In this document: positions 57 through 14,180 of the stretch, one piece after another
How the letters are laid out: each line of letters opens with the position of its first letter
How positions within the stretch are numbered: position 1 is the stretch's first letter
Source of the DNA: a bacterium
GTDB lineage: Bacteria; UBP7; UBA6624
NCBI GenBank assembly: GCA_002716355.1
Contig: PBAU01000015.1
Coordinates: forward strand, 1-15,233
Direction: 5' to 3'
DNA length: 15,233 bases
Program-made: the position numbers and the translations under genes
The notes under the pieces: generated by a model
Databases searched by the model: none
Told to the model about the DNA's origin: nothing
The model's input: only the letters and a program-made list of their open reading frames with translations

Positions 57-872
57 ATGGATCTGGCAACCATAATCGGATTAATTAGTGGAACAGCATT
101 AATTCTATTTTCAATGTTTTTAGAAGCAACAAAAAGCAGTATATCTATGTTGAAATTTTGGAGCCCATCAAGTATTATGATTGTTTTAGGTGGAACATTA
201 GCAGCAACATCAGTTGCTTTTAGATTAAAAGAGGTGGCGCGTGTTATTTCTATTATTAAATATGCATTTATTAAGCCTAAGTTTGTGCTGCATGAATTAG
301 TACAAGCTATTATTGAGTTAGCAGAGGCTAATCGTAAAGGACCTGCAGAATTAGAAAAAGAAATTCCAAACATTAAATATCCATTTTTACAAGATGGAGT
401 GCAATTTATTACTCAAGGAATCAAGCTAGATGAGTTGCGAGAAATTTTAGAAGAAAGAGAAGCTTTTAGATATAAAAGAGAATTACACGAATCTGAACTT
501 ATGAAAACAATGGGAATTTATGCACCAGCATTTGGTATGGTTGGAACTTTAATTGGTTTGGTGATTATGTTGTTTGGTATGGGTGGCAACGATAGTGGCG
601 GCGGAGGCGCAGGAGGCATTGGAAGCATTGGTCCAGCTATGGGTGTTGCATTAATTACAACCTTTTATGGGGCTATTTTAGCTAATTTAATTTTTAATCC
701 TTTTGCAGAAAAAATTAAATCTCGTAATAAAGAAAACGTACAAGCTTTTAAAATTATTATTGAAGGTGTTTGCATGCTACATCAAAAGAAACATTACTTT
801 GATGTAAAAGATAAATTAACTTCTTATATCCCAACCGAAGACCGTTTAAAATATTTTAAAGATGATGAATAA
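57..872 (+). CDS. motA: Flagellar-type stator channel protein, MotA/PomA family (271 aa)
   Basis: AAGGAG Shine-Dalgarno at 46-51, 5 nt before the ATG. Four-TM layout with a large cytoplasmic loop between TM2 and TM3. TM3/TM4 signature PAFGMVGTLIGL...IGPAMGVALITTFYGAILANLIFNPFAEKI closely matches my recollection of PomA/MotA (conserved Pro in TM3, NPF in TM4). The cytoplasmic loop keeps a basic pair followed by acidic residues (ANRKGPAELEKE). Size is typical of flagellar stators, not ZorA. Confidence 0.9.
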   Translation: MDLATIIGLISGTALILFSMFLEATKSSISMLKFWSPSSIMIVLGGTLAATSVAFRLKEVARVISIIKYAFIKPKFVLHELVQAIIELAEANRKGPAELEKEIPNIKYPFLQDGVQFITQGIKLDELREILEEREAFRYKRELHESELMKTMGIYAPAFGMVGTLIGLVIMLFGMGGNDSGGGGAGGIGSIGPAMGVALITTFYGAILANLIFNPFAEKIKSRNKENVQAFKIIIEGVCMLHQKKHYFDVKDKLTSYIPTEDRLKYFKDDE

Positions 873-1578
873 ACAAGAATTAGACCAATTTGAAGATGAA
901 ATAAGAGGGAGTATTAAAGAAGAGCAGTCATGGATGATGACATATGCAGACATGATGACACTTTTATTTGCTTTTTTTGTTCTTCTTTTTTCTATGTCAA
1001 CAATAGATCCAGTAAAAATATCCCAACTTATGGATGGAATGGGAGATCAACCAGAATTAAAATCATTTAATGAGATAACCAAAGAGTTTGAAGACATATT
1101 AGAAGAACTAAATATTGAGAATCAAGCAAAAGTTTCTAGGGATCCAAGAGGCGTTACATTAGAAATTGATGGAGATATTTGTTTTGAATCAGCAAGCACT
1201 CAGCTACATGAAACATTAATCCGAGTATTAGATTTAGCCGCAAAGAAAGTATTAAGTCAGGCAGATGATCCAAGACTGATTACTGTAGAGGGGCATACTG
1301 ATGCAGATCAAATTCCAAAGGAATTAAGAAAGTTTTTTCCAACAAATTGGGAATTATCTGCTGCAAGAGCTTCAAAAGTTGTAAATTATTTGATTGATAT
1401 TGGTGTAAATTCTGGTAAATTACAGGCATCTGGATATGCCGATAGATGGCCTGCAAGTTTATCTTGGTATGATGTTCGAAGCGGTAAAGTCAATAATGCT
1501 GTTATTGCAGAAAATAATAAAACCGAGGAACAAAAAAAAATAAATCGCAGAATCAAAATTGTTTTTAGTAAAAATTAA
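862..1578 (+). CDS. motB: Stator anchor protein MotB/PomB family with OmpA-like peptidoglycan-binding domain (238 aa)
   Basis: Overlaps the motA stop by 11 nt (ATGATGAATAA), suggesting translational coupling. Single TM with the invariant ion-binding Asp in YADMMTLLFAFFVLLFSMS (Asp30, nt 949-951). OmpA-like motifs GHTD...NWELSAARA...GYADRWP...NRRIKIVF. Confidence 0.9.
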   Translation: MMNKQELDQFEDEIRGSIKEEQSWMMTYADMMTLLFAFFVLLFSMSTIDPVKISQLMDGMGDQPELKSFNEITKEFEDILEELNIENQAKVSRDPRGVTLEIDGDICFESASTQLHETLIRVLDLAAKKVLSQADDPRLITVEGHTDADQIPKELRKFFPTNWELSAARASKVVNYLIDIGVNSGKLQASGYADRWPASLSWYDVRSGKVNNAVIAENNKTEEQKKINRRIKIVFSKN

Positions 1579-1595: not shown

Positions 1596-2903
1596 ATGAA
1601 CCAAAAATTTAAAACAATTATAAATAAAACATTCTTTGTATGTTTGTTTTTGAGTATTGCTCTAATGCAAAATGCAGAATTAATAACCCAAAAAATTAAT
1701 GTAGAAAATGCTATTAGAGATAAAGTGAATGTAACATTAAATAAATTATTAGATCAATCACAGTATGTAATTATCGTGAATGCAAGAATGGATGTTAAGG
1801 CATTTTCAATGAATGATAATTCTACATCTAGTCAGCAGCAAACTAGAAACTATTATAGTCCTATCCCTGGTTTACTACCAACAGTACCACAGAATATTAA
1901 AAAATCAACAGGAACAACTTATCAGTATTCTTCTGATAAATATTTATTATATGGCTTAGATATTGCAATTTATTTAGACGAATCAACAGCAACAGGTTCA
2001 ATGAAACAAAACATTATTCGTTTAGTAAATGATGCAATTCCAGAATTAGTTGATTGTGAAGATTGTATACGATTTGAAACTATGAGCATGAATAACTCAA
2101 CCAGTTCAAGCTATCAAGATTTATTAAATAGAATTGAAACATTAGAACAAGAAAGAAGAGATGCCGAAGCTCAATTGATTAATTGGAAGTTTGACCAATT
2201 AGAAAGTCAGTTACTTATTGCGCAACAAAGAGAAAGATCTCGAGAAATTGCAGATTCGGCGAGATTGGCTAATTTACAAAAAATTGAATTAGAATATAGA
2301 AAAAAACAAGATTCTTTATATGTTTTAACATCAATCAATTTAAATGAAGCAATTAAAGGAAGAATTCAATCTGAATCAGATTTAAATGATAAATTAATTG
2401 ATATTATTAAAAGCGGTATGGACTCCAATGCAGATAGCGATATTATTGGAGGAGGTACTGATTCAGATATTGATAGGTCTAAATCAAATAATGCAGGATT
2501 ATTAATGTGGATTGGCTTTGCAGTTATTGTCTTGTTATTAGGTACATTAATATTAATGGTTATGAAAAATAAACAGCCAGTTTATTTAAAGCCTAAAAAT
2601 TCAAATAAACAGCCCGAATCTTCTGGTTCAGAATCTAATCAAAAACAAAATTTTGATGCCACTCAATCAACAGTTGTACCACCAACTCAAACTACAAGTT
2701 CTGATTCTTTAGATTTAACAGCAACTAGCGCAAATGAAGATGGAGATGTGATGAGATCAGAATTAAAGTCTTTACGTCAATCTGCTGTAGCAATGAGCGT
2801 AAGTCAGAAAGATGGAGCAAATCAAATTGTAAAAGATTGGTTAGATAGTTCTAATGAAGATGGAAATAGTTCAGATGAACAATCTGATGATAAGAAGAGT
2901 TAA
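1596..2903 (+). CDS. Two-TM membrane protein, candidate shortened/divergent FliF (MS-ring)-like protein (435 aa)
   Basis: GGGAG RBS upstream of the ATG. N-terminal hydrophobic segment (FFVCLFLSIALM). About 280 aa predicted periplasmic region with helix-strand-strand stretches resembling YscJ/FliF ring-building motifs (VENAIRDKVNVTLNKLLDQSQYVIIVNARMDV; LYGLDIAIYLDES...KQNIIRLVNDAIPELVDCEDCIRFETM). Heptad-like coiled-coil stretch (about residues 170-260). Second TM LLMWIGFAVIVLLLGTLILMVM (nt 2499-2564). About 110-aa Ser/Thr/Asp-rich cytoplasmic tail ending in an amphipathic segment with Trp (ANQIVKDWLDSSNED), like the FliG-binding C-terminus of FliF. Lies immediately upstream of fliG, as fliF normally does. 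The CDS is confident; the family assignment is tentative. Confidence 0.45.
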   Translation: MNQKFKTIINKTFFVCLFLSIALMQNAELITQKINVENAIRDKVNVTLNKLLDQSQYVIIVNARMDVKAFSMNDNSTSSQQQTRNYYSPIPGLLPTVPQNIKKSTGTTYQYSSDKYLLYGLDIAIYLDESTATGSMKQNIIRLVNDAIPELVDCEDCIRFETMSMNNSTSSSYQDLLNRIETLEQERRDAEAQLINWKFDQLESQLLIAQQRERSREIADSARLANLQKIELEYRKKQDSLYVLTSINLNEAIKGRIQSESDLNDKLIDIIKSGMDSNADSDIIGGGTDSDIDRSKSNNAGLLMWIGFAVIVLLLGTLILMVMKNKQPVYLKPKNSNKQPESSGSESNQKQNFDATQSTVVPPTQTTSSDSLDLTATSANEDGDVMRSELKSLRQSAVAMSVSQKDGANQIVKDWLDSSNEDGNSSDEQSDDKKS

Positions 2904-2929: not shown

Positions 2930-3865
2930 ATGGGAAATGATTTAATAGATACTTTAGCAGGATTAGATAAATCAGCAATTTTATTTCAAGTTTTAGGTGA
3001 GTCTTTAGCCTTAACTATGTTTCAAAGTTTATCTGAGAGCGAAGTTTTAAAAATTAGAGTACGCTCTAAAGAGTTGAAAAATATTCCTTTTGATATTAAG
3101 CAGGCAGTTCTTGAAGAATTTTATTTCAAGATGATGACTCAAAAATATAGACAAGTAAGCAAGTCAAATAAGCTGTTTTCTTTTTTAGATGAATTAAATG
3201 ATGAACAAATATTTTATTTAACTAATACTGAATCTGCAAAAGTTATAGCCCTAACTCTTGATCAGCTATCAGAAGAAAGAAAAATAAAAATTCTTAATCG
3301 TTTTAATGCAAGCATTAAACATAATATTATTATTGAATTTGCCCAACTAAATGAAATTCCCCTAGAAGGTGTTGTGAATATTGCGCATGAATTAAAAAAG
3401 AAAATATCTTTTATACCCGGACCAAAGGAATTTAGTAGAGGAGGAGCACAAAGTATTGCTGCTTTACTGAATCAAATGAGCATTGAAGAATCAGAACAAT
3501 ATTTAAGCCAAATTGAACAAGATGATCCAGAACTTTATTCTAAAGTAAAAAAATACTTTTTATCTTTTGAGGATTTGTTAGATATGCCTGATCATTTAAT
3601 GCAAATATTTTGGAAAAATCCTGATGCAACAGATGTAGATACATTAGCTCAAGCATTAAAAGGCTTTGATCAAGACGTTGTTGATAGGATATTGTCATAT
3701 TTGCCTACAAGAAAACAAAAAATGTATACACCTATCACAACACCATTATCAAAGCGAGATGCAGAAGGCGCACAACAATCTATTATGAAAGTCGCAAAAG
3801 AAATGTCTAAAAACAAAGAATTAAACCTTGATGATATTTTATCAGAAACAGAAATGATAGATTAG
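2930..3865 (+). CDS. fliG: Flagellar motor switch/rotor protein FliG family, all three domains present (311 aa)
   Basis: Collinear similarity to remembered FliG sequences. N domain: LAGLDKSAILFQVLGESLALTMFQSLSESEV...VLEEFY. Middle domain: NTESAKVIALTL in place of the EHPQ-TIAL motif. GGAQSIAALLNQM and DDPELYSKVKKYFLSFEDL match the GG linker and MFxF-EDL motif. C domain: LAQALKGF...TRKQ...RDAEGAQQSIMKV. Length is typical for FliG. Confidence 0.85.
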   Translation: MGNDLIDTLAGLDKSAILFQVLGESLALTMFQSLSESEVLKIRVRSKELKNIPFDIKQAVLEEFYFKMMTQKYRQVSKSNKLFSFLDELNDEQIFYLTNTESAKVIALTLDQLSEERKIKILNRFNASIKHNIIIEFAQLNEIPLEGVVNIAHELKKKISFIPGPKEFSRGGAQSIAALLNQMSIEESEQYLSQIEQDDPELYSKVKKYFLSFEDLLDMPDHLMQIFWKNPDATDVDTLAQALKGFDQDVVDRILSYLPTRKQKMYTPITTPLSKRDAEGAQQSIMKVAKEMSKNKELNLDDILSETEMID

Positions 3866-3957: not shown

Positions 3958-5478
3958 TTATCCTAAAATCATATTAATCATGGCAACGACATCTAAAACA
4001 TTTATAACACCATCTTCATTTAAATCTGAGCAAGCATTATAATTATCTTCACAGTCAGCACACAGTATAATATTAATTGTTAGAACGACATCTAGAACAT
4101 TTAATACTCCATCTGCATTTGCATCCCCATATAATTGACCACATTCATCGCCAGATCCACCAAGATCTAAGTCTAGGGTTACAAATTGTCCACTACCATC
4201 GCTAAATATAAATTCGGCAGCATTACCACCACCAATTGTTGCGCTAAATGTTACACCTTCTTCATATGCATGTCCATCAGGCGTCATAATAAAAACCATA
4301 TCTTCTACCATAACTTCATGAGCTGTTGCTAAATTATTTTCAGCATCTGTATATAAAACAGAAACTATACCTGTTTCAGTATCATATGTTGGGTTTGTAA
4401 GAGAGGGTAAAGAGTTGTCATTTTGCGATTGAGTAGACATAACCAATACCCCAAGATCTGACGTATCTAAAATATTAGTTGAAATATCTAAACCACTAAG
4501 GCCCGCCTCAACTGTAGTACCAACTAAAGCAACCCCATTTAAGGAATTAGGCCAAACTCCCCAATCAGCATCATTAGTAATAATTGATAGTAAAGATGAA
4601 GCTTGAAAATTATTACCAGCAGTTGAATAACTAAAATTCTCACTTAAAACCTCAAATCCTCCAACTTCTCCTGTTGTTAAATCACCATCAATTTTATAAA
4701 TTGCAGGATAAAGCTGACCAAAACCGCCATCACCCCAAGCATATGCATAGGCAACAGGGTTTTCAGCCTCTGGATTTACTATTGCAATAGAATATAAATT
4801 CCATGGTCCAAAAAAAGACCCAGAATCACAGCAAGATCCAGATAATCCTAATGAAGCAAATAATTTATCATCACTATATGTTGCTTTTATATTAACTATA
4901 TCTTGGCTAGCACTAGTTTCTCCAGATTCATCAGTTACTAATGTAGTATATAAATTATTTGCTGGAGGCCATTGGTTATTTTCATTATATGGAGATTGTG
5001 AAACGGTAATTTGACCAAAATCAAGCCCAAGGGAGTTAGAATCAATAGAACCTTGTAAGTACCAATCAACATTATCGCCACCATTTGTTGTAGTTGTTGC
5101 GCCCCATGTACTTTCATATCCCTCTTCATTTATAGGATTTACATTTGAATTTTCTATCCAGCTTTGTTGATTATCAGTAGAAACAAAAACACTTGCAGAT
5201 GTACTTTCAGCTTGTATTAGCGAATCTGATAAATCTGCATGAGTTGTAAAGTTAACTGCTGGAGCTGAAGAACATAAATTTTCTAATAATTCTTCTCTAA
5301 CATTTGGCATAACTTGGTTAACTGCATTTTTTGCAACCATTGCTCGCTCCCAAATAAGTTGAGCGGCTTCCTTATGAATTTGTTCCCATTGTTGAGCAGT
5401 GGGCTGTTGATAATTATTATTAAAACCCAGCGAGCTTAAAATCCATAAAAAACTAAAAATTTTCATACATGTATACAT
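3958..5478 (-). CDS. Secreted protein of unknown function with C-terminal tandem dockerin-type (EF-hand-like Ca-binding) repeats (506 aa)
   Basis: GAGGT RBS 7 nt upstream of the ATG at 5478. Signal-peptide-like N-terminus (MKIFSFLWILSSLGF). C-terminus has two copies of a D-x-N-x-D-G-V-[LI]-N-V-L-D-V-V motif (GDANADGVLNVLDVVLTINIIL and SDLNEDGVINVLDVVAMINMILG; nt 3961-4128), matching the type I dockerin duplicated-segment pattern. I do not recognise the remaining ~440 aa (Gly/Ser/Thr/Asn-rich, probably beta-rich). Confidence 0.8.
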   Translation of the reverse strand: MYTCMKIFSFLWILSSLGFNNNYQQPTAQQWEQIHKEAAQLIWERAMVAKNAVNQVMPNVREELLENLCSSAPAVNFTTHADLSDSLIQAESTSASVFVSTDNQQSWIENSNVNPINEEGYESTWGATTTTNGGDNVDWYLQGSIDSNSLGLDFGQITVSQSPYNENNQWPPANNLYTTLVTDESGETSASQDIVNIKATYSDDKLFASLGLSGSCCDSGSFFGPWNLYSIAIVNPEAENPVAYAYAWGDGGFGQLYPAIYKIDGDLTTGEVGGFEVLSENFSYSTAGNNFQASSLLSIITNDADWGVWPNSLNGVALVGTTVEAGLSGLDISTNILDTSDLGVLVMSTQSQNDNSLPSLTNPTYDTETGIVSVLYTDAENNLATAHEVMVEDMVFIMTPDGHAYEEGVTFSATIGGGNAAEFIFSDGSGQFVTLDLDLGGSGDECGQLYGDANADGVLNVLDVVLTINIILCADCEDNYNACSDLNEDGVINVLDVVAMINMILG

Positions 5479-8394: not shown

Positions 8395-8790
8395 ATGAAA
8401 ATAGAAAGAATGAATAAAGGAAGCTGGGGAAAAGTAAGAGCTTTTTTTGATTTAACGACTCAAGAAGGTTTTACTATTAAAGGTTTTAAAATTATAGAAG
8501 GGATTAATGGTTTGTTTGTTAGCATGCCAAGCCAAAAAGGTAATGATGAAGAATACTATGATACAATTTGGGTAGATTCTAAGCAATTGAGAGAAGATTT
8601 AAATGAATTAGCAATAAATCAATATAATCAATCTTCTAGCGATACATTATCACCGCCAACTTCAAATGAAAATTCAAGTGAAATGAATAGCACTCCTTCA
8701 ACAGGAGATAATTTATCAGATAATCAACCTGTTGAATCAGAAACTACTGCAGATACTCCAGCATTTTCTGATGATGATATTCCTTTTTAA
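8395..8790 (+). CDS. spoVG: SpoVG-family nucleic-acid-binding protein with a disordered acidic C-terminal extension ending in an SSB-like DDDIPF tip (131 aa)
   Basis: Residues 1-79 align with remembered SpoVG (GKVRAFFDLT...FTIKGFKIIEGINGLFVSMPSQK...EYYDTI...LREDLNELAINQY versus B. subtilis GRMRAIASIT...[23 protein letters not shown]...EFRDI...). Residues 80-131 are Ser/Thr/Asn/Pro/Asp/Glu-rich with no basic residue, and the last six codons (8770-8787) encode DDDIPF. No obvious Shine-Dalgarno. Confidence 0.85.
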   Translation: MKIERMNKGSWGKVRAFFDLTTQEGFTIKGFKIIEGINGLFVSMPSQKGNDEEYYDTIWVDSKQLREDLNELAINQYNQSSSDTLSPPTSNENSSEMNSTPSTGDNLSDNQPVESETTADTPAFSDDDIPF

Positions 8791-8802
8791 GATATATAAA
8801 GT

Positions 8803-9471
8803 ATGATGCAATTTTTATTTTCTTCTATAGGTAAAAAAATTCAGGTTGCTATCTCAGGTATTTTTTTATGTATTTTTTTAGTTTTTCATTTACTGAATAA
8901 TATCACATTGTTTTTTGGTCCAGCTGTATTTAATGCTATGGTTCATTTTTTAGAGAGTATTAAACCAATGATTAGAATTATGGAATTTGGTTTGTTATTT
9001 ATTCTCATCATGCATATAGGCAATGCTATAAAATTAACAATAGAAAATAAAGCTGCAAATCCTGTTAATTATAAACAATCACAATCTAACGATGTGAGCT
9101 CTTTAAATTCTCGGACTATGCTAATATCAGGCACTATAATCTTATTGTTTATTATTTTACATCTCAGCTATATATGGCTTAGCTATCAAACACACAATCC
9201 TAATAATCATAGTGAAACTTATTATGATATTTTGTTAAGAAACAAAATTGGGTTTTTAGGGCACAAATGGACGGCTTTATTTTATGTAATTGCCATTAGT
9301 ATTATTGCATTTCATTTACGCCATGGTTTTCAATCTGCATTAAAAACTTTGGGTTTTCTTCCTAATTCAAAAAATAATTTTTTATATAAAATTGCCTTTA
9401 TTTTTTGGGGAATAATACCTTTTGGTTTTATTGTTATTGTTTTATCAATTCAATTTGGAATTATTAATTAA
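8803..9471 (+). CDS. sdhC: Succinate dehydrogenase/fumarate reductase cytochrome b subunit (b558-type, five TM helices) (222 aa)
   Basis: N-terminal [13 protein letters not shown] motif typical of Bacillus/Bacteroides-type SdhC/FrdC. Five hydrophobic helices with conserved His in FHLLNN, MHIGNA, LHLSYIW and FHLRHGF, consistent with bis-His ligation of two haems. Directly precedes sdhA and sdhB. Confidence 0.85.
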
Positions 9472-9472
9472 T

Positions 9473-11383
9473 ATGAAATCACTGGATTCTAAAATACCCA
9501 ATGGAGATTTAGTTAGTAAATGGTCTCAGCACAAATTTAATTTAAATTTAGTTAATCCATCGAATAAAAAAAAATATACAGTGATTGTAGTTGGGACTGG
9601 TTTAGCTGGTGCATCCGCAGCTGCAACAATGGCAGAATTAGGATATAATGTTTTAGCTTTTTCATATCATGAATCACCGCGTAGAGCTCATAGCATTGCA
9701 GCACAAGGTGGAATTAATGCTGCTAAAAATTATCAAAATGATGGAGATAGTGTTTTTAGATTATTTTATGATACTATTAAAGGAGGCGATTATCGATCAA
9801 GGGAAGCCAATGTTTATCGTTTAGCAGAATTAAGTAGCAATATTATTGATCAATGTGCAGCACAGGGAGTTCCATTTGCTCGTGAATATGGAGGACACTT
9901 AGCAAATCGTTCATTTGGCGGAGCGCAAGTTTCTCGTACATTTTATGCTAGAGGACAAACAGGACAACAGCTACTTTTAGGAGCATATTCTGCCTTAATT
10001 AGGCAAATGAATTTAAAAACAGTCAAATTTTTTCCTAGACATGAAATGTTAGATTTGGTTACCATTGATGGGCATGCAAAAGGAATTATCGCAAGAAATT
10101 TATTAACGGGAGACATACAATCCTATCCAGCAAATGCAGTTGTATTAGCAACAGGAGGGTATGGAAATGTTTTTTACTTATCTACAAATGCGATGGCAAG
10201 CAATGTAACAGCTTCATGGCGTGCACATAAAAAAGGAGCATTATTTGCTAATCCTTGCTTTACACAAATTCATCCAACCTGCATACCTGTGAGTAGTAAT
10301 CATCAATCTAAATTAACATTAATGAGTGAAAGCTTAAGAAATGATGGGCGTGTATGGGTGCCAAAGAAAAAAAATGATTTAAGAGATCCCAATCAAATAT
10401 CAGAAGAAGAAAGAGATTATTATTTAGAACGACTTTATCCTTCTTTTGGGAATTTAGTCCCTAGAGATGTTGCATCTAGGAGAGCAAAAGAAATGTGTGA
10501 TAACGGCTTTGGTGTTGGCAATACAAGGTTAGCTGTATATCTAGACTTTAAAGATGTTATCGCCAAACAAGGTAAAAACTGGGTTGCTGAAAAATATGGT
10601 AATCTTTTTGATATGTATCATCAAATCACTGGAGAAAGTCCCTATGAAAAACCCATGATGATATATCCGGCAGTACACTATACTATGGGAGGATTATGGG
10701 TTGATTATAATTTAATGAGTAATATTCCAGGATTATATGTAACAGGTGAAGCAAATTTTTCAGATCATGGAGCAAATAGATTAGGAGCCAGTGCATTAAT
10801 GCAAGGTTTAGCTGATGGATATTTTATTTTGCCTTATACTATAGGAGATTATTTAGCTAAAGAATCATCAGCTTTAAATAGCACACATGAAGAGTATCAA
10901 AATGGAGTGCAATTTTGTAATGAACAAATTAAAAATATGCTTTCTATTAAAGGTAATAAAACTGTTGATGATTTACATAAAGAATTAGGAAAGATTATGT
11001 GGGATTATGTAGGCATGTCTAGAAATAAAAGCAATTTAGAGTTAGCCTTGAAACAGATTCCATCTATTAGAGAAGATTTTTGGAATAATGTTAATATTCC
11101 TGGAACTGGCAAAGAATTTAACCCAGAATTAGAAAAAGCAGGTCGCTTAGCAGATTTTATTGAGCTAGGGGAATTAATGGCAAAAGATGCGCTAAATAGA
11201 GAAGAATCGTGTGGCGGCCATTTTAGAGAAGAACATCAAACAGATGACAATGAAGCAAAAAGAAACGACGAAAATTATTCGTTTGTAGCTGCATGGGAAT
11301 ATGTTAAAGAAAAAGAATCAATTATGCATAAGGAACAATTAATATTTGAAAATGTAAAACTGGCAACCAGGAGCTATAAATAA
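9473..11383 (+). CDS. sdhA: Succinate dehydrogenase/fumarate reductase flavoprotein subunit (636 aa from the ATG at 9473)
   Basis: FAD dinucleotide fold [21 protein letters not shown]. Covalent-FAD histidine motif [15 protein letters not shown]. Active-site region [10 protein letters not shown] and [19 protein letters not shown] prefer the ATG at 9473 (MKSLDSKIP..., 1 nt after the sdhC stop) to the TTG at 9422 in the ORF track, which would overlap sdhC by 50 nt. Confidence 0.95.
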
Positions 11384-12122: not shown

Positions 12123-12746
12123 TTATTGTAGTTTAAAAGAAACAGGAATATTAACCCAAACACCAATTCTCTTTCCCTGTTGTTTTGCAGGAATCCATCT
12201 AGATTTTTGAACAGCCTGTAATGCCATTTTATCTAAAGATTCAAATACTCCTTTAACCAGATAGCAATTTTTTGGTATTCCCTTTTTATTTATAAAAGCA
12301 GCAATAATAACCCTTCCTTCAATTCCTGCTTCTTTTGCTAGTTCAGGATATTCTACAAAGTCTTCCACTTTAAAACCAGGATATGGTTGAGGTTCAACCT
12401 CTCTTGCAATATATTCAAATTGCATGTTATTATTACCTGAGGGTGCTTCCCATTCATCAAAATCTTCTAAATCAGTGTCTTCAATTGTGATATCTTCATC
12501 AAAAAACTCATCTTCTGAAGCTACTGGAATTGAGGGGCGAGGCGGTGGCTCTGGTAATTTAATTTGTTCAGTTTGCGGAATATCAAATGTTTCAATTTCT
12601 TCTTGAATTGTTTTTTCAAATTTTTGAGCTTCACCAAGAAATCTTGGGAAAATATAAAAAATGATGGCAATTCCCATAATTACTCCTAGTGTAACTTCTC
12701 TAATACGTACAGGATAATGGTCTAATAGTGGATCTATTCTCATCAT
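12123..12746 (-). CDS. tonB: TonB-family energy transducer (207 aa)
   Basis: N-terminal TM anchor (VTLGVIMGIAIIFYIF), Pro-rich spacer (LPEPPPRPSIP), acidic linker, and C-terminal TonB domain (YPELAKEAGIEGRVIIAAFINKKG...ALQAVQKSRWIPAKQQGKRIGVWVNIPVSFKL). Starts 4 nt after the upstream exbD stop. Confidence 0.85.
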   Translation of the reverse strand: MMRIDPLLDHYPVRIREVTLGVIMGIAIIFYIFPRFLGEAQKFEKTIQEEIETFDIPQTEQIKLPEPPPRPSIPVASEDEFFDEDITIEDTDLEDFDEWEAPSGNNNMQFEYIAREVEPQPYPGFKVEDFVEYPELAKEAGIEGRVIIAAFINKKGIPKNCYLVKGVFESLDKMALQAVQKSRWIPAKQQGKRIGVWVNIPVSFKLQ

Positions 12747-12750
12747 AATT

Positions 12751-13161
12751 TTATTTTGATTGTGTTAAAGCTGAATAATTTAATTTTAAAGCCTGAGCCT
12801 GCCTAAGTTGAGTATGTATATCAGTTAATGTTTCCATAATACTGTTTTCATCAGACTTTAAGGAAACTGTTAATTTAGGATCTTTGGTAATTTTTAAATA
12901 CATTACTTCTCCTAAATCATTAATATTAATAATTTGATCATCTACTGATATCAACCCATCTTTAGTTGCCCATATATATGAAGTATGTCTTTTGCTTTCT
13001 AATTTTTCTATTGTTTGAGCTCTAGGCAATACGACTTCTAATCCTTCAAACTCACGCATTACAGTAGTAACCATAAAAAATATTAATAGCATGAAAATTA
13101 TATCAGGAAGAGATGATGTAGAAATTTCGTTACTTGTTTTATTTTTTCTATTTAATTTCAT
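12751..13161 (-). CDS. exbD: Biopolymer transport protein ExbD/TolR family, second copy (136 aa)
   Basis: Signature N-terminal segment SSLPDIIFMLLIFFMVTT with the conserved TM Asp, followed by a small periplasmic domain. Operon position between exbD-1 and tonB. Confidence 0.88.
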   Translation of the reverse strand: MKLNRKNKTSNEISTSSLPDIIFMLLIFFMVTTVMREFEGLEVVLPRAQTIEKLESKRHTSYIWATKDGLISVDDQIININDLGEVMYLKITKDPKLTVSLKSDENSIMETLTDIHTQLRQAQALKLNYSALTQSK

Positions 13162-13167
13162 ATTTTA

Positions 13168-13569
13168 TCAATTAGGTGGATTTGCAATAGAAATTTTTGT
13201 TGCTCCAGCTTGCTTCAATTGGTCTAATACTTCGATATAGCTTTTATATTTTGTACGCTTATTAGTTAACACAGAAAAAATTACTTTTTTATTTGCTTTA
13301 ATTCTATCAATTGCCTTTCTTTTTATATCTTTAATTTGTGTTGGCTGATCATCTAATAATACTTTTCCACGGTCATTAATCAAAACATTCACAATATTAT
13401 TTTTATTAACCTCTAGTTCATTCCCTTCAGCAGGAAGAATTAAGCTTATTCCTTTATCAAGTGAAATTGTAGTTGTTACAAGAAAAAAGACTAATAACAA
13501 AAATGCTATATCAGACATTGAAGAAGAATTGACTTCTTGCATTGCGGCTCTTCTAGGTTTTGTGAGCAT
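13168..13569 (-). CDS. exbD: Biopolymer transport protein ExbD/TolR family, first copy (133 aa)
   Basis: SSMSDIAFLLLVFFLVTTT signature with the conserved Asp. TAATG stop/start overlap with exbB. Confidence 0.88.
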   Translation of the reverse strand: MLTKPRRAAMQEVNSSSMSDIAFLLLVFFLVTTTISLDKGISLILPAEGNELEVNKNNIVNVLINDRGKVLLDDQPTQIKDIKRKAIDRIKANKKVIFSVLTNKRTKYKSYIEVLDQLKQAGATKISIANPPN

Positions 13570-14180
13570 TATTTTTTCTTTGTATCTGCTATGCTTTGTA
13601 GTAACATAGATGTACTTTTTTGCATAGTAACAATTTGATTATCTATAATATACATAACAGCATTTTGTAATAGTTGAAGAATTACTGCTACTACTAGTCC
13701 AAAAGCCGTAGTTAATAATGCTACTGAAATACCACCCGCTACTACTGCAGGAGAGATATCATTGGCCATTTTAATATCATTAAATGCTTGAATCATTCCC
13801 CACACAGTTCCCAAAAATCCTAACATAGGCGCCGTTGCTATACATAATGATATCCATGTCATATTTTTTTCTAATGATGCCATTTCAATTGCACCAGATT
13901 GTTCTAAAGATTTTTCAGCCGCCTCTTCTCCTAAATGAGCACGGTCCAATGCATTGTAACATAAATTAGCGACAGGTCCAACTGCTCCATCACATTTATC
14001 TTTGGCCGCACTTACTCCAGAATCTTTAATAGTTTGAGCAATATCTTCAGCAAAATCTTCTTTTGTCGCCAATCCTTTTAATAGATGGTATAATCTTTCA
14101 CCAACAAATACAAAACCAATTATAAAAATAAATAATATTGGCCACATAAATCCGCCACCATCAATAAATAATTGTACCAT
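13569..14180 (-). CDS. exbB: MotA/TolQ/ExbB-family proton channel, ExbB (203 aa)
   Basis: AGGAGA RBS (complement of 14187-14192) 6 nt from the ATG. GGFMWPILFIFIIGFVFVGERL N-terminal helix. Conserved APMLGFLGTVWGMI...GISVALLTTAFGLVVAV TM2/TM3 motifs. Heads the exbB-exbD-exbD-tonB operon. Confidence 0.9.
   Translation of the reverse strand: MVQLFIDGGGFMWPILFIFIIGFVFVGERLYHLLKGLATKEDFAEDIAQTIKDSGVSAAKDKCDGAVGPVANLCYNALDRAHLGEEAAEKSLEQSGAIEMASLEKNMTWISLCIATAPMLGFLGTVWGMIQAFNDIKMANDISPAVVAGGISVALLTTAFGLVVAVILQLLQNAVMYIIDNQIVTMQKSTSMLLQSIADTKKK

Follow-up and report, generated by a model that had tools for sequence, protein, structure and literature searches.

Gene content and organization of the operon

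Analysis of a stretch of bacterial DNA of 15,233 nucleotides (nt; GenBank assembly GCA_002716355.1, contig PBAU01000015.1, read on the forward strand), hereafter the window, revealed four tightly packed genes on the forward strand, the third of which encodes a protein that appears to be derived from the flagellar ring protein FliF. This protein, named X in this study, is the 435-amino-acid (aa) product of the open reading frame (ORF) at 1596..2903 (+), which begins with ATG, and ring-building motif 3 (RBM3) would be its only FliF periplasmic domain. The first gene of the group (57..872, +) encodes a MotA/PomA-type stator A subunit of 271 aa (PF01618, E-value 9e-22), which matched the NCBIfam models MotP, PomA and MotA over their full length at E-values of about 1e-50 to 1e-41, against 0.05 for ExbB. 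The second (862..1578, +) encodes a MotB-type stator B subunit of 238 aa with a plug (PF13677 MotB_plug, 3.9e-18) and a peptidoglycan-binding OmpA-like domain (PF00691, 2e-14). The fourth (2930..3865, +) encodes a protein of 311 aa in which the N, M and C domains of FliG (PF14842, PF14841 and PF01706) all scored above the Pfam cut-offs, and its earlier identification as FliG in the first-pass annotation, which was made from the sequence alone, is thus upheld. The motA and motB genes overlap by 11 nt, and gaps of 17 nt and 26 nt separate motB from X and X from fliG. The G+C content of the window is about 30%. The scan for promoters and terminators found nothing above the shuffled background.

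Homologues of X were found in 215 clusters at E≤1e-3, and an exhaustive profile search across 1.84 billion representatives recovered 299 representatives; X therefore belongs to a conserved protein family and is not a chance ORF. The named homologues originate from Candidatus Marinimicrobia (Neomarinimicrobiota or Fidelibacterota), a phylum that is among the most abundant of the dark ocean. The 24 close homologues are treated here as the near family, and a locus search with their alignment gave 12 genome loci. In what follows, X-related proteins carry P numbers and genomic loci carry L numbers.

Comparison of the 14 loci that were long enough for gene order to be counted revealed the order U1-(U1b)-U2-MotA-MotB-X-FliG in all 14, with the identity of X falling to as low as 24%. 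The flanks of the operon are occupied by genes for NAD, pantothenate, pyruvate phosphate dikinase (PPDK), SpoVG and succinate dehydrogenase, and no further flagellar gene was found within 10 kb of the operon at these loci. The order fliE-fliF-fliG-fliH-fliI is near-universal; at the loci of X this neighbourhood is not matched, as motAB precedes X and neither fliH nor fliI follows fliG. A description of this operon was not found in the literature.

Two or three exported proteins are always encoded before motA (L001 6174-8457, L003 and L006-L019), and in the genome analysed here they lie upstream of the start of the window. U1 has a lipoprotein-like N-terminus ('FxxNC'), a coiled coil and a beta-rich C-domain, with a stretch rich in Cys and Lys in some copies. 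In U2, an unassigned N-domain (about 280 aa) is combined with a coiled coil and two tetratricopeptide repeats (TPRs). The optional U1b, of about 200-300 aa, follows U1. Apart from the TPR repeats, U1 and U2 gave no PDB or Pfam match. These exported proteins are candidate periplasmic or outer-membrane partners of a motor.

Some copies of the operon contain genes split in two ORFs, namely FliG and U2 in L007 (11499-12432), X in L014 (9995-11317) and X in L015 (8181-9543). The splits in L014 and L015 are likely assembly errors, since ambiguous bases are present, and pseudogenisation may have occurred in some lineages. Locus L014 (NZNP01000075.1) and protein P0299 carry the NCBI label 'Gammaproteobacteria bacterium' despite a Marinimicrobia-type operon with equal synteny; both are probably mis-binned or mislabelled contigs of metagenome-assembled genomes (MAGs).

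Relationship of X to the RBM3 domain of FliF

Three independent lines of sequence and model comparison support a relationship between the N-terminal domain of X and the RBM3 (S-ring) domain of FliF. An AlphaFold2 (AF2) model of X was built with the 24-sequence alignment as input and compared with the PDB using Foldseek. The best 16 matches were all FliF chains of the MS-ring, S-ring or RBM3 from Salmonella and Vibrio, with E-values of 4.6e-4 to 1.3e-2 and probabilities of at least 0.98, and were followed by unrelated OsmC/Ohr folds.

Analysis of distant relatives provided the second line. Among ten distant full-length relatives of 480-530 aa, which are linked to the X profile at E-values of 1e-15 to 1e-23, six passed the gathering threshold of PF08345 (YscJ_FliF_C), five of them at 5e-11 to 4e-6 and the sixth barely, at 5.4e-5. 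The match covers residues 47-220 approximately, directly after the signal peptide, and no other flagellar domain is present in these proteins. Alignment of the near family with one distant relative by hhalign gave an E-value of 6.7e-17 over the N-terminal 68 or so residues, comprising the signal peptide, helix 1 and strand 1. A profile of this sister clade retrieved 1,755 proteins; of the 120 listed, 118 have PF08345 as their sole flagellar domain and two are without a precomputed hit. For several of these proteins the NCBI annotation (PGAP) reads 'flagellar M-ring protein FliF C-terminal domain-containing protein [Candidatus Marinimicrobia]'.

A broad profile of 19 sequences across both clades, with identities down to 20%, was also compared with the PDB. 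Its top four matches were FliF, at E-values of 0.0026-0.054, and the aligned region takes in RBM3 in full, starting at 'E-x-alr-kI' and closing with the final strand 'RGD-l-v-s-pF'. Alignment of this profile with E. coli FliF by hhalign placed X residues 32-187 on FliF residues 237-436 at an E-value of 1.9e-4. The near-family profile alone gave an E-value of 0.43 for FliF in the PDB and an hhalign probability of 0.7% against E. coli FliF, so that significance was reached only with the distant relatives from the exhaustive search added.

PF01514, which represents RBM1 and RBM2 (the SctJ-homology region), was found neither in X nor in the ten distant relatives; it is not one of the 25 families listed for the 24 near relatives at E≤10, nor does it occur in the precomputed domains of the 120 sister-clade proteins listed. 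As the RBM3 helix begins only about 5-10 residues past the signal peptide, there is no room for RBM1 or RBM2. Judged from its sequence, X is a FliF homologue, yet one without RBM1/2 and without a flagellar neighbourhood, and for this reason it is not filed here as 'a FliF'. The first-pass annotation had proposed a FliF-derived or FliF-analogous ring protein, shorter in the periplasm by 100 aa or more, that may not form the usual housing of rod and export gate, and the Foldseek matches, the PF08345 matches in relatives and the lack of PF01514 support this. Affiliation with an unrelated family of the FliL, FlgT or PilO type, named there as the alternative, found no match, and these readings were dropped together with a ZorA-type one, as neither profiles nor folds supported any of them and FliF accounted for all the best fold matches. 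Features of the SctJ/YscJ/PrgK lipoproteins are likewise missing from X, which has no PF01514 and no lipobox; its Cys16 is not conserved.

Domain architecture of X

Analysis of hydrophobicity (Kyte-Doolittle scale, KD, as the 19-residue maximum) revealed two hydrophobic segments in X, at residues 13-24 approximately (KD 1.73) and at residues 297-326 (KD 2.77). The second contains the transmembrane (TM) helix, residues 300-324 (2493..2567, +), which is also helical in the AF2 model, and the TM segment placed earlier at nt 2499-2564 is therefore retained. The first had been taken for a membrane anchor as well. It forms part of residues 1-24 (1596..1667, +), a Lys-rich N-region followed by a hydrophobic core of about 13 residues, and is read here, with moderate confidence, as a probable cleavable Sec signal peptide, or else as a weak TM1. 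The position before the invariant Q25 (-1) is S, T, A or G in 18 of 24 relatives, and position -3 is small or aliphatic, a pattern typical of signal peptidase I sites. A Gln at +1 of signal peptides (the Q-rule) is established in Bacteroidetes, explicitly not for the whole Fibrobacteres-Chlorobi-Bacteroidetes (FCB) group (PMC5837995), and is used here as a lead only. Cleavage would leave mature X a single-pass protein, in comparison with FliF, which has two TM helices. One X homologue, P0100 (417 aa, from a 2-kb European Nucleotide Archive contig), has a PF07309 FlaF match (E-value 1e-12, residues 5-77) that replaces the usual N-terminus. FlaF is a flagellin-synthesis regulator, and this part of P0100 could reflect either a chimera made in assembly or a genuine fusion.

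Residues 25-165 (1668..2090, +) form a split RBM3-like domain by AF2, Foldseek and hhalign, with the order helix 1, strand 1, insertion, strand 2, helix 2 and strand 3. In the AF2 model a helix extends to residue 51, strands occupy residues 57-67, 116-127 and 158-162, residues 69-113 are disordered and helices lie at residues 134-153. Two RBM-like segments had been recognised in the first-pass annotation; their RBM character stands, and they are the halves of one split RBM3 (alpha-beta-beta-alpha-beta) and not two motifs. The second segment (LDIAIYLDES...CIRFETM) aligns by hhalign with the FliF block before TM2 (VQRLSVAVVV...RGDSLNVVNSPF), the counterpart that had been suggested for it. The insertion between strands 1 and 2, residues 69-113 (1800..1934, +), is about 45 aa long with a predicted local distance difference test score (pLDDT) below 50. 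It stands at the position of the FliF beta-collar, where FliF has about 110 aa, and carries the invariant residues Y87..P91-G92-L93..P95..P98, which align with 'VPGALSNQP' of FliF in hhalign. Immediately ahead of the last RBM3 strand, where FliF and the sister clade have R-G-D, X carries the periplasmic motif C154-x-x-C157 (2055..2066, +). This motif is invariant in the marine clade and might form a disulfide or bind a metal where subunits meet.

Between RBM3 and the TM helix, AF2 predicts one long alpha-helix at residues 173-274 (2112..2417, +), mostly with pLDDT above 90 (91-95 over residues 180-240 approximately). The length of this helix is about 100-170 aa across the family, and 34% of its residues are charged. 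A heptad-like charged stretch of about 90 aa had been described for this region; a charged helix is confirmed at a length of about 102 aa, while the heptads are unproven, as hydrophobic periodicity of 3.5 residues was not significant in a crude Fourier test (p about 0.14). X of the window and its closest relative P0002 are without 11 residues ('SEDARSEWExQ') in the middle of this helix (nt 2196-2210 region, residues 207-208 approximately), which the 22 other aligned relatives have; 11 residues are three helical turns, so the deletion preserves the helical register.

The TM helix is followed on the cytoplasmic side by the invariant sequence Y-L-K-P-K (invariant Y330-P333). Residues 325-376 (2568..2723, +) form a low-complexity cytoplasmic linker. 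The description of this linker as low-complexity agrees with its variability and with pLDDT values below 50; it is otherwise without conservation. Residues 377-419 (2724..2852, +) make up the conserved tail, the top-conserved block of the family, which AF2 models as helical from residue 378 to 419 and which would be the peptide that co-folds with the FliG N domain.

The C-terminal tail and its putative docking to FliG

Comparison of the 24 homologues revealed invariant residues throughout the tail, including T377, A379, V385, L390, R394, Q395, V398, V402, K405, G407, Q410-V412, D414 and W415. W415 is invariant also in the 19-sequence alignment that reaches 20% identity. The position of this Trp at nt 2838-2840 was given correctly in the first-pass annotation; the 38-aa tail quoted there ends at nt 2864 and not at nt 2843. 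Compared by eye, the tail of X (...SAVAMSVSQKDGANQIVKDWLD) and the C-terminus of E. coli FliF (...IREMSDNDPRVVALVIRQWINN) share the pattern M-S...[IV]-[VI]-[KR]-x-W-[LI] with identical spacing and the W at +15. The tail alone, searched by phmmer and as a profile against the PDB, gave no significant match to the FliF C-terminus. A model of the tail with the FliG N domain was made by AF2 as one fused chain, with an alignment for FliG only; the tail folded into two helices, as it does in co-folds of the FliF C-terminus with FliG-N, and Foldseek found that the FliG-N part of the model resembles the FliG-N chains in 5WUJ and 5TDY. Docking of the tail onto FliG-N is, on these sequence comparisons, a well-motivated inference.

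Conservation of stator and FliG residues

Residues known from the flagellar motor were compared across 15 copies of the operon, using E. coli numbering. The channel Asp of MotB (E. coli D32) is invariant (15/15). In MotA, the equivalents of R90, P173 and P222 are kept in all 15 copies and E98 in 12, with Val in the remaining three. The features of a flagellar-type stator are present, namely the MotA_ExbB channel domain, the MotB plug, the channel Asp, the OmpA-like peptidoglycan-binding domain and the charges of the cytoplasmic loop (E98 in 12 of the 15 copies). The NCBIfam scores of MotA and MotB are below the equivalog cut-offs, as is that of FliG (TIGR00207, 8.5e-32).

The retention of these residues bears on another reading, in which the operon is left over from a lost flagellum, is decaying and has no present function. 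The frameshift-split copies of X in L014 and L015 and of FliG and U2 in L007 would fit such decay; the split copies, however, come from low-quality assemblies with runs of N. Against decay, the ORFs are intact and strongly patterned throughout the phylum in hundreds of clusters, MotB D32, MotA P173/P222 and X W415 are invariant, and in X a variable linker adjoins invariant blocks. We consider a functionless remnant highly improbable.

FliG of the window aligns with E. coli FliG over its full length at 22% identity, and the Gly-Gly hinge is present. In the torque helix, K264 and R281 (R or K) are kept and R297 is S or P. The FliM-binding motif of FliG-M, EHPQR, is lost in all 15 copies: E125 is kept, H126 is replaced by S, P, E or K, Q128 by K or R and R160 by E or A, which gives the pattern E-[S/P/E/K]-[P/A/T]-[K/R]...[E/A]. 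Published gene content points in the same direction. In 14 Marinisomatota MAG rows of Supplementary Dataset 3 of Zhang et al. 2023 (PMC10359470), one of them for a 93%-complete MAG, fliG is scored in 8/14, fliM in 0/14 and fliNY in 0/14, whereas flagellated taxa in the same dataset are scored 1/1/1. Fidelibacter multiformis, which alone represents the phylum in culture, is non-motile (PMC11652737).

These observations have to be set against the explanation that X belongs to an ordinary, complete flagellum as its strongly diverged MS-ring protein, the remaining flagellar genes being located in other parts of the genome. MotA, MotB and FliG are indeed of the flagellar type, the scans made here covered the operon loci, and a preprint reports 'flagellar assembly' genes in Marinimicrobia MAGs (10.1101/2020.06.03.132969), a report that may be compatible with motA, motB and fliG alone. 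On the other side, RBM1 and RBM2 are absent family-wide, the order fliE-fliF-fliG-fliH-fliI is replaced at all loci by motA-motB-X-fliG followed by a convergent non-flagellar gene, EHPQR is lost from FliG, fliM and fliN are absent from all 14 MAG rows and the only isolate does not move. A complete flagellum therefore appears improbable, though less so than a remnant without function.

A proposed flagellum-independent motor

Taken together, our analysis suggests, with a probability of about 0.6, that X forms the rotor ring in a motor that is independent of a flagellum and is driven through MotAB and FliG. RBM1 and RBM2 surround the export gate and the proximal rod in every solved MS-ring; X, being without them, would be unable to house a type III export gate or a rod. 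The lack of RBM1/2 combined with a FliG without EHPQR would make this a non-switching rotor outside a flagellum, with no axial export channel.

We infer the following course of events for such a motor. The N-terminus of X would be exported by Sec and probably cleaved, after which the RBM3 domains would oligomerise into a periplasmic, S-ring-like ring. Isolated RBM3 of FliF builds rings alone (Mariano et al. 2022, PMC8786727). The long helices of X would join this periplasmic ring to a ring of TM helices, and the tails with their invariant Trp would co-fold with the N domain of FliG to set up a FliG ring beneath the membrane. MotA/MotB stators, with their plug, channel Asp and peptidoglycan anchor, would convert ion flow into torque on FliG-C, and the rotation would presumably be passed via the periplasmic ring to the lipoprotein-like U1 and the TPR protein U2.

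In its wider form the proposal is that Marinimicrobia have a self-contained, flagellum-independent rotary machine that turns something periplasmic or outer-membrane and not a filament. In this machine MotAB would serve as the stator, FliG as the rotor and a FliF with RBM3 alone as the ring, placed on a periplasmic helical stalk, with the lipoprotein and the TPR protein as partners. For this complete machine we consider the chances roughly even. It could have originated by radical reduction of a flagellum or, much less likely, could be a pre-flagellar survivor.

Several results weigh against a motor of this kind. X itself has no Pfam or NCBIfam match, and the 24 close relatives likewise gave nothing relevant. 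The Foldseek matches have template-modelling scores of about 0.5 on the target with a high root-mean-square deviation, and the domain itself was modelled with pLDDT values of about 70-76. By HMMER, the family tail fell on Vibrio FliF residues 556-579 of 580 at an E-value of 1.9, which is not significant, and in the fused model with FliG-N the pLDDT of the tail was only 53-72. The absence of flhA, fliPQR and the rod, hook and filament genes is presumed from the operon loci and the published table, and the preprint cited above states that 'flagellar assembly' genes are present. Finally, D288 and D289 of FliG are gone in a three-residue deletion in all 15 copies, and the stator-rotor interface could thus be altered or not classically used.

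This missing acidic pair of the torque helix is among the reasons for considering that X could, without forming a rotating ring, act as a static scaffold or a sensor and hold FliG at the membrane, with MotAB-FliG acting as a Tol/Ton-like ion-driven switch or energiser and not as a continuous rotary motor. In its long helix and its TPR and lipoprotein partners, the module is reminiscent of systems that transduce energy across the envelope, and the rotation of the proposed motor is derived from its parts. RBM3, however, is a ring-building fold, FliG retains three domains, the Gly-Gly hinge and K264/R281, and the stator has a flagellar-type plug and peptidoglycan anchor. A static role is accordingly unlikely, although it is the strongest of the competing explanations, and the rotor ring remains the preferred reading of X.

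Comparison with known systems

Comparison of X with canonical FliF (PF01514 plus PF08345; Salmonella/E. coli, PDB 6SD1, 8FTF and 7D84; Vibrio, 8Z4G) revealed a common plan. Both have a split RBM3 with an insertion between strands 1 and 2 that bears a 'PG' motif, a beta-alpha-beta block before the TM helix, a cytoplasmic linker, a helical tail ending in ...W-[LIM]-x and a gene directly upstream of fliG. Unlike canonical FliF, X has no RBM1 or RBM2, its insertion is about 45 and not about 110 aa long, CxxC takes the place of RGD and a probable signal peptide that of TM1. A helix of 100-170 residues lies between RBM3 and the TM helix, where FliF has nothing. Its gene is preceded by motAB and not by fliE, and the fliG that follows is without fliH and fliI.

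The Marinimicrobia sister clade (about 500 aa; P0246, P0444 and P0453) has the same architecture and operon as X (L006), and the N-domain, TM helix and tail can be aligned between the two. The sister clade differs in being detectable with PF08345, in retaining RGD and in having a longer coiled coil and linkers rich in Pro and Lys. In the clade of X, divergence has gone so far that no library threshold is reached, and the annotation says no more than 'hypothetical'.

The FliF-FliG fusion of Chlamydiaceae (Bergeron 2016, PMC4768692) offers a parallel, as it is also a shortened FliF coupled to FliG-like sequence, in non-flagellated bacteria with few flagellar genes. In the chlamydial protein, RBM2-like sequence is retained, the SpoIIIAG-like RBM3 is missing and FliG-M is joined on by fusion; the reverse holds for X, which has RBM3 only, a separate full-length FliG and a MotAB stator. 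The insertions of FliF and SpoIIIAG are also found between strands 1 and 2 (Bergeron 2016, PMC4768692). SpoIIIAG, of the sporulation channel of Firmicutes, resembles X in having a single split RBM with the insertion at this position, and it forms a large ring alone; unlike X, it has no FliG-binding tail and no stator. SpoIIIAG was not among the 50 best Foldseek matches of X.

The GldLM/PorLM motors of gliding and type IX secretion, from the same FCB superphylum, are comparable by analogy only. They combine an ion-driven 5:2 motor of the inner membrane with an elongated protein that crosses the periplasm to outer-membrane partners. They have no sequence relationship to the X module, and GldL drives GldM directly without a FliG rotor.

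Implications for flagellar motors

To our knowledge, every FliG/MotAB rotor-stator pair studied to date is part of a flagellum. If the proposal is true, the operon of X would encode the first flagellar-type rotor-stator module known outside one, and, should the absence of a flagellum be confirmed, it would matter greatly to work on flagellar motors. The way in which a rotating MS-ring/FliG unit joined the type III export apparatus is an open question of flagellar evolution, and a phylum-wide operon retaining no more than the stator, FliG and the FliF S-ring domain would give a natural case in which 'rotation' stands apart from 'export and filament'. The module would also provide a minimal rotor for structural and biophysical work and add a new output to the ion-driven 5:2 motors. 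Surveys that score motility or 'flagellar assembly' by motA, motB or fliG will, on the same premise, miscall these abundant marine bacteria.

Other genes of the window

The remaining genes of the window are housekeeping genes and encode a dockerin-domain protein, PPDK, SpoVG, succinate dehydrogenase, TonB-ExbD-ExbD-ExbB and an S41 peptidase. The dockerin protein (3958-5478, -; 506 aa) is secreted, ends in a type I dockerin pair and is encoded convergently to fliG. Its gene is found beside fliG in every marine-clade locus long enough (38-74% identity) and not in the distant locus L006. This adjacency may be simple synteny, as the block pan-U1-U2-motAB-X-fliG-dock-ppdK-spoVG-sdh-tonB is conserved as a whole.

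A second ion-driven system of the 5:2 type is encoded on the reverse strand at 12123-14180, with ExbB at 13569-14180, ExbD at 13168-13569 and 12751-13161 and TonB at 12123-12746. The presence of these Ton genes means that the host has an ordinary Ton energiser besides MotAB-FliG. The SpoVG homologue (8395-8790, +) has a low-complexity C-terminal extension of 50 residues rich in Ser, Asn and Asp. The ORF of the succinate dehydrogenase/fumarate reductase flavoprotein (9422-11383, +) begins with TTG and overlaps the preceding cytochrome-b-like gene; its true start is probably the internal Met of 'MKSLDSK'.

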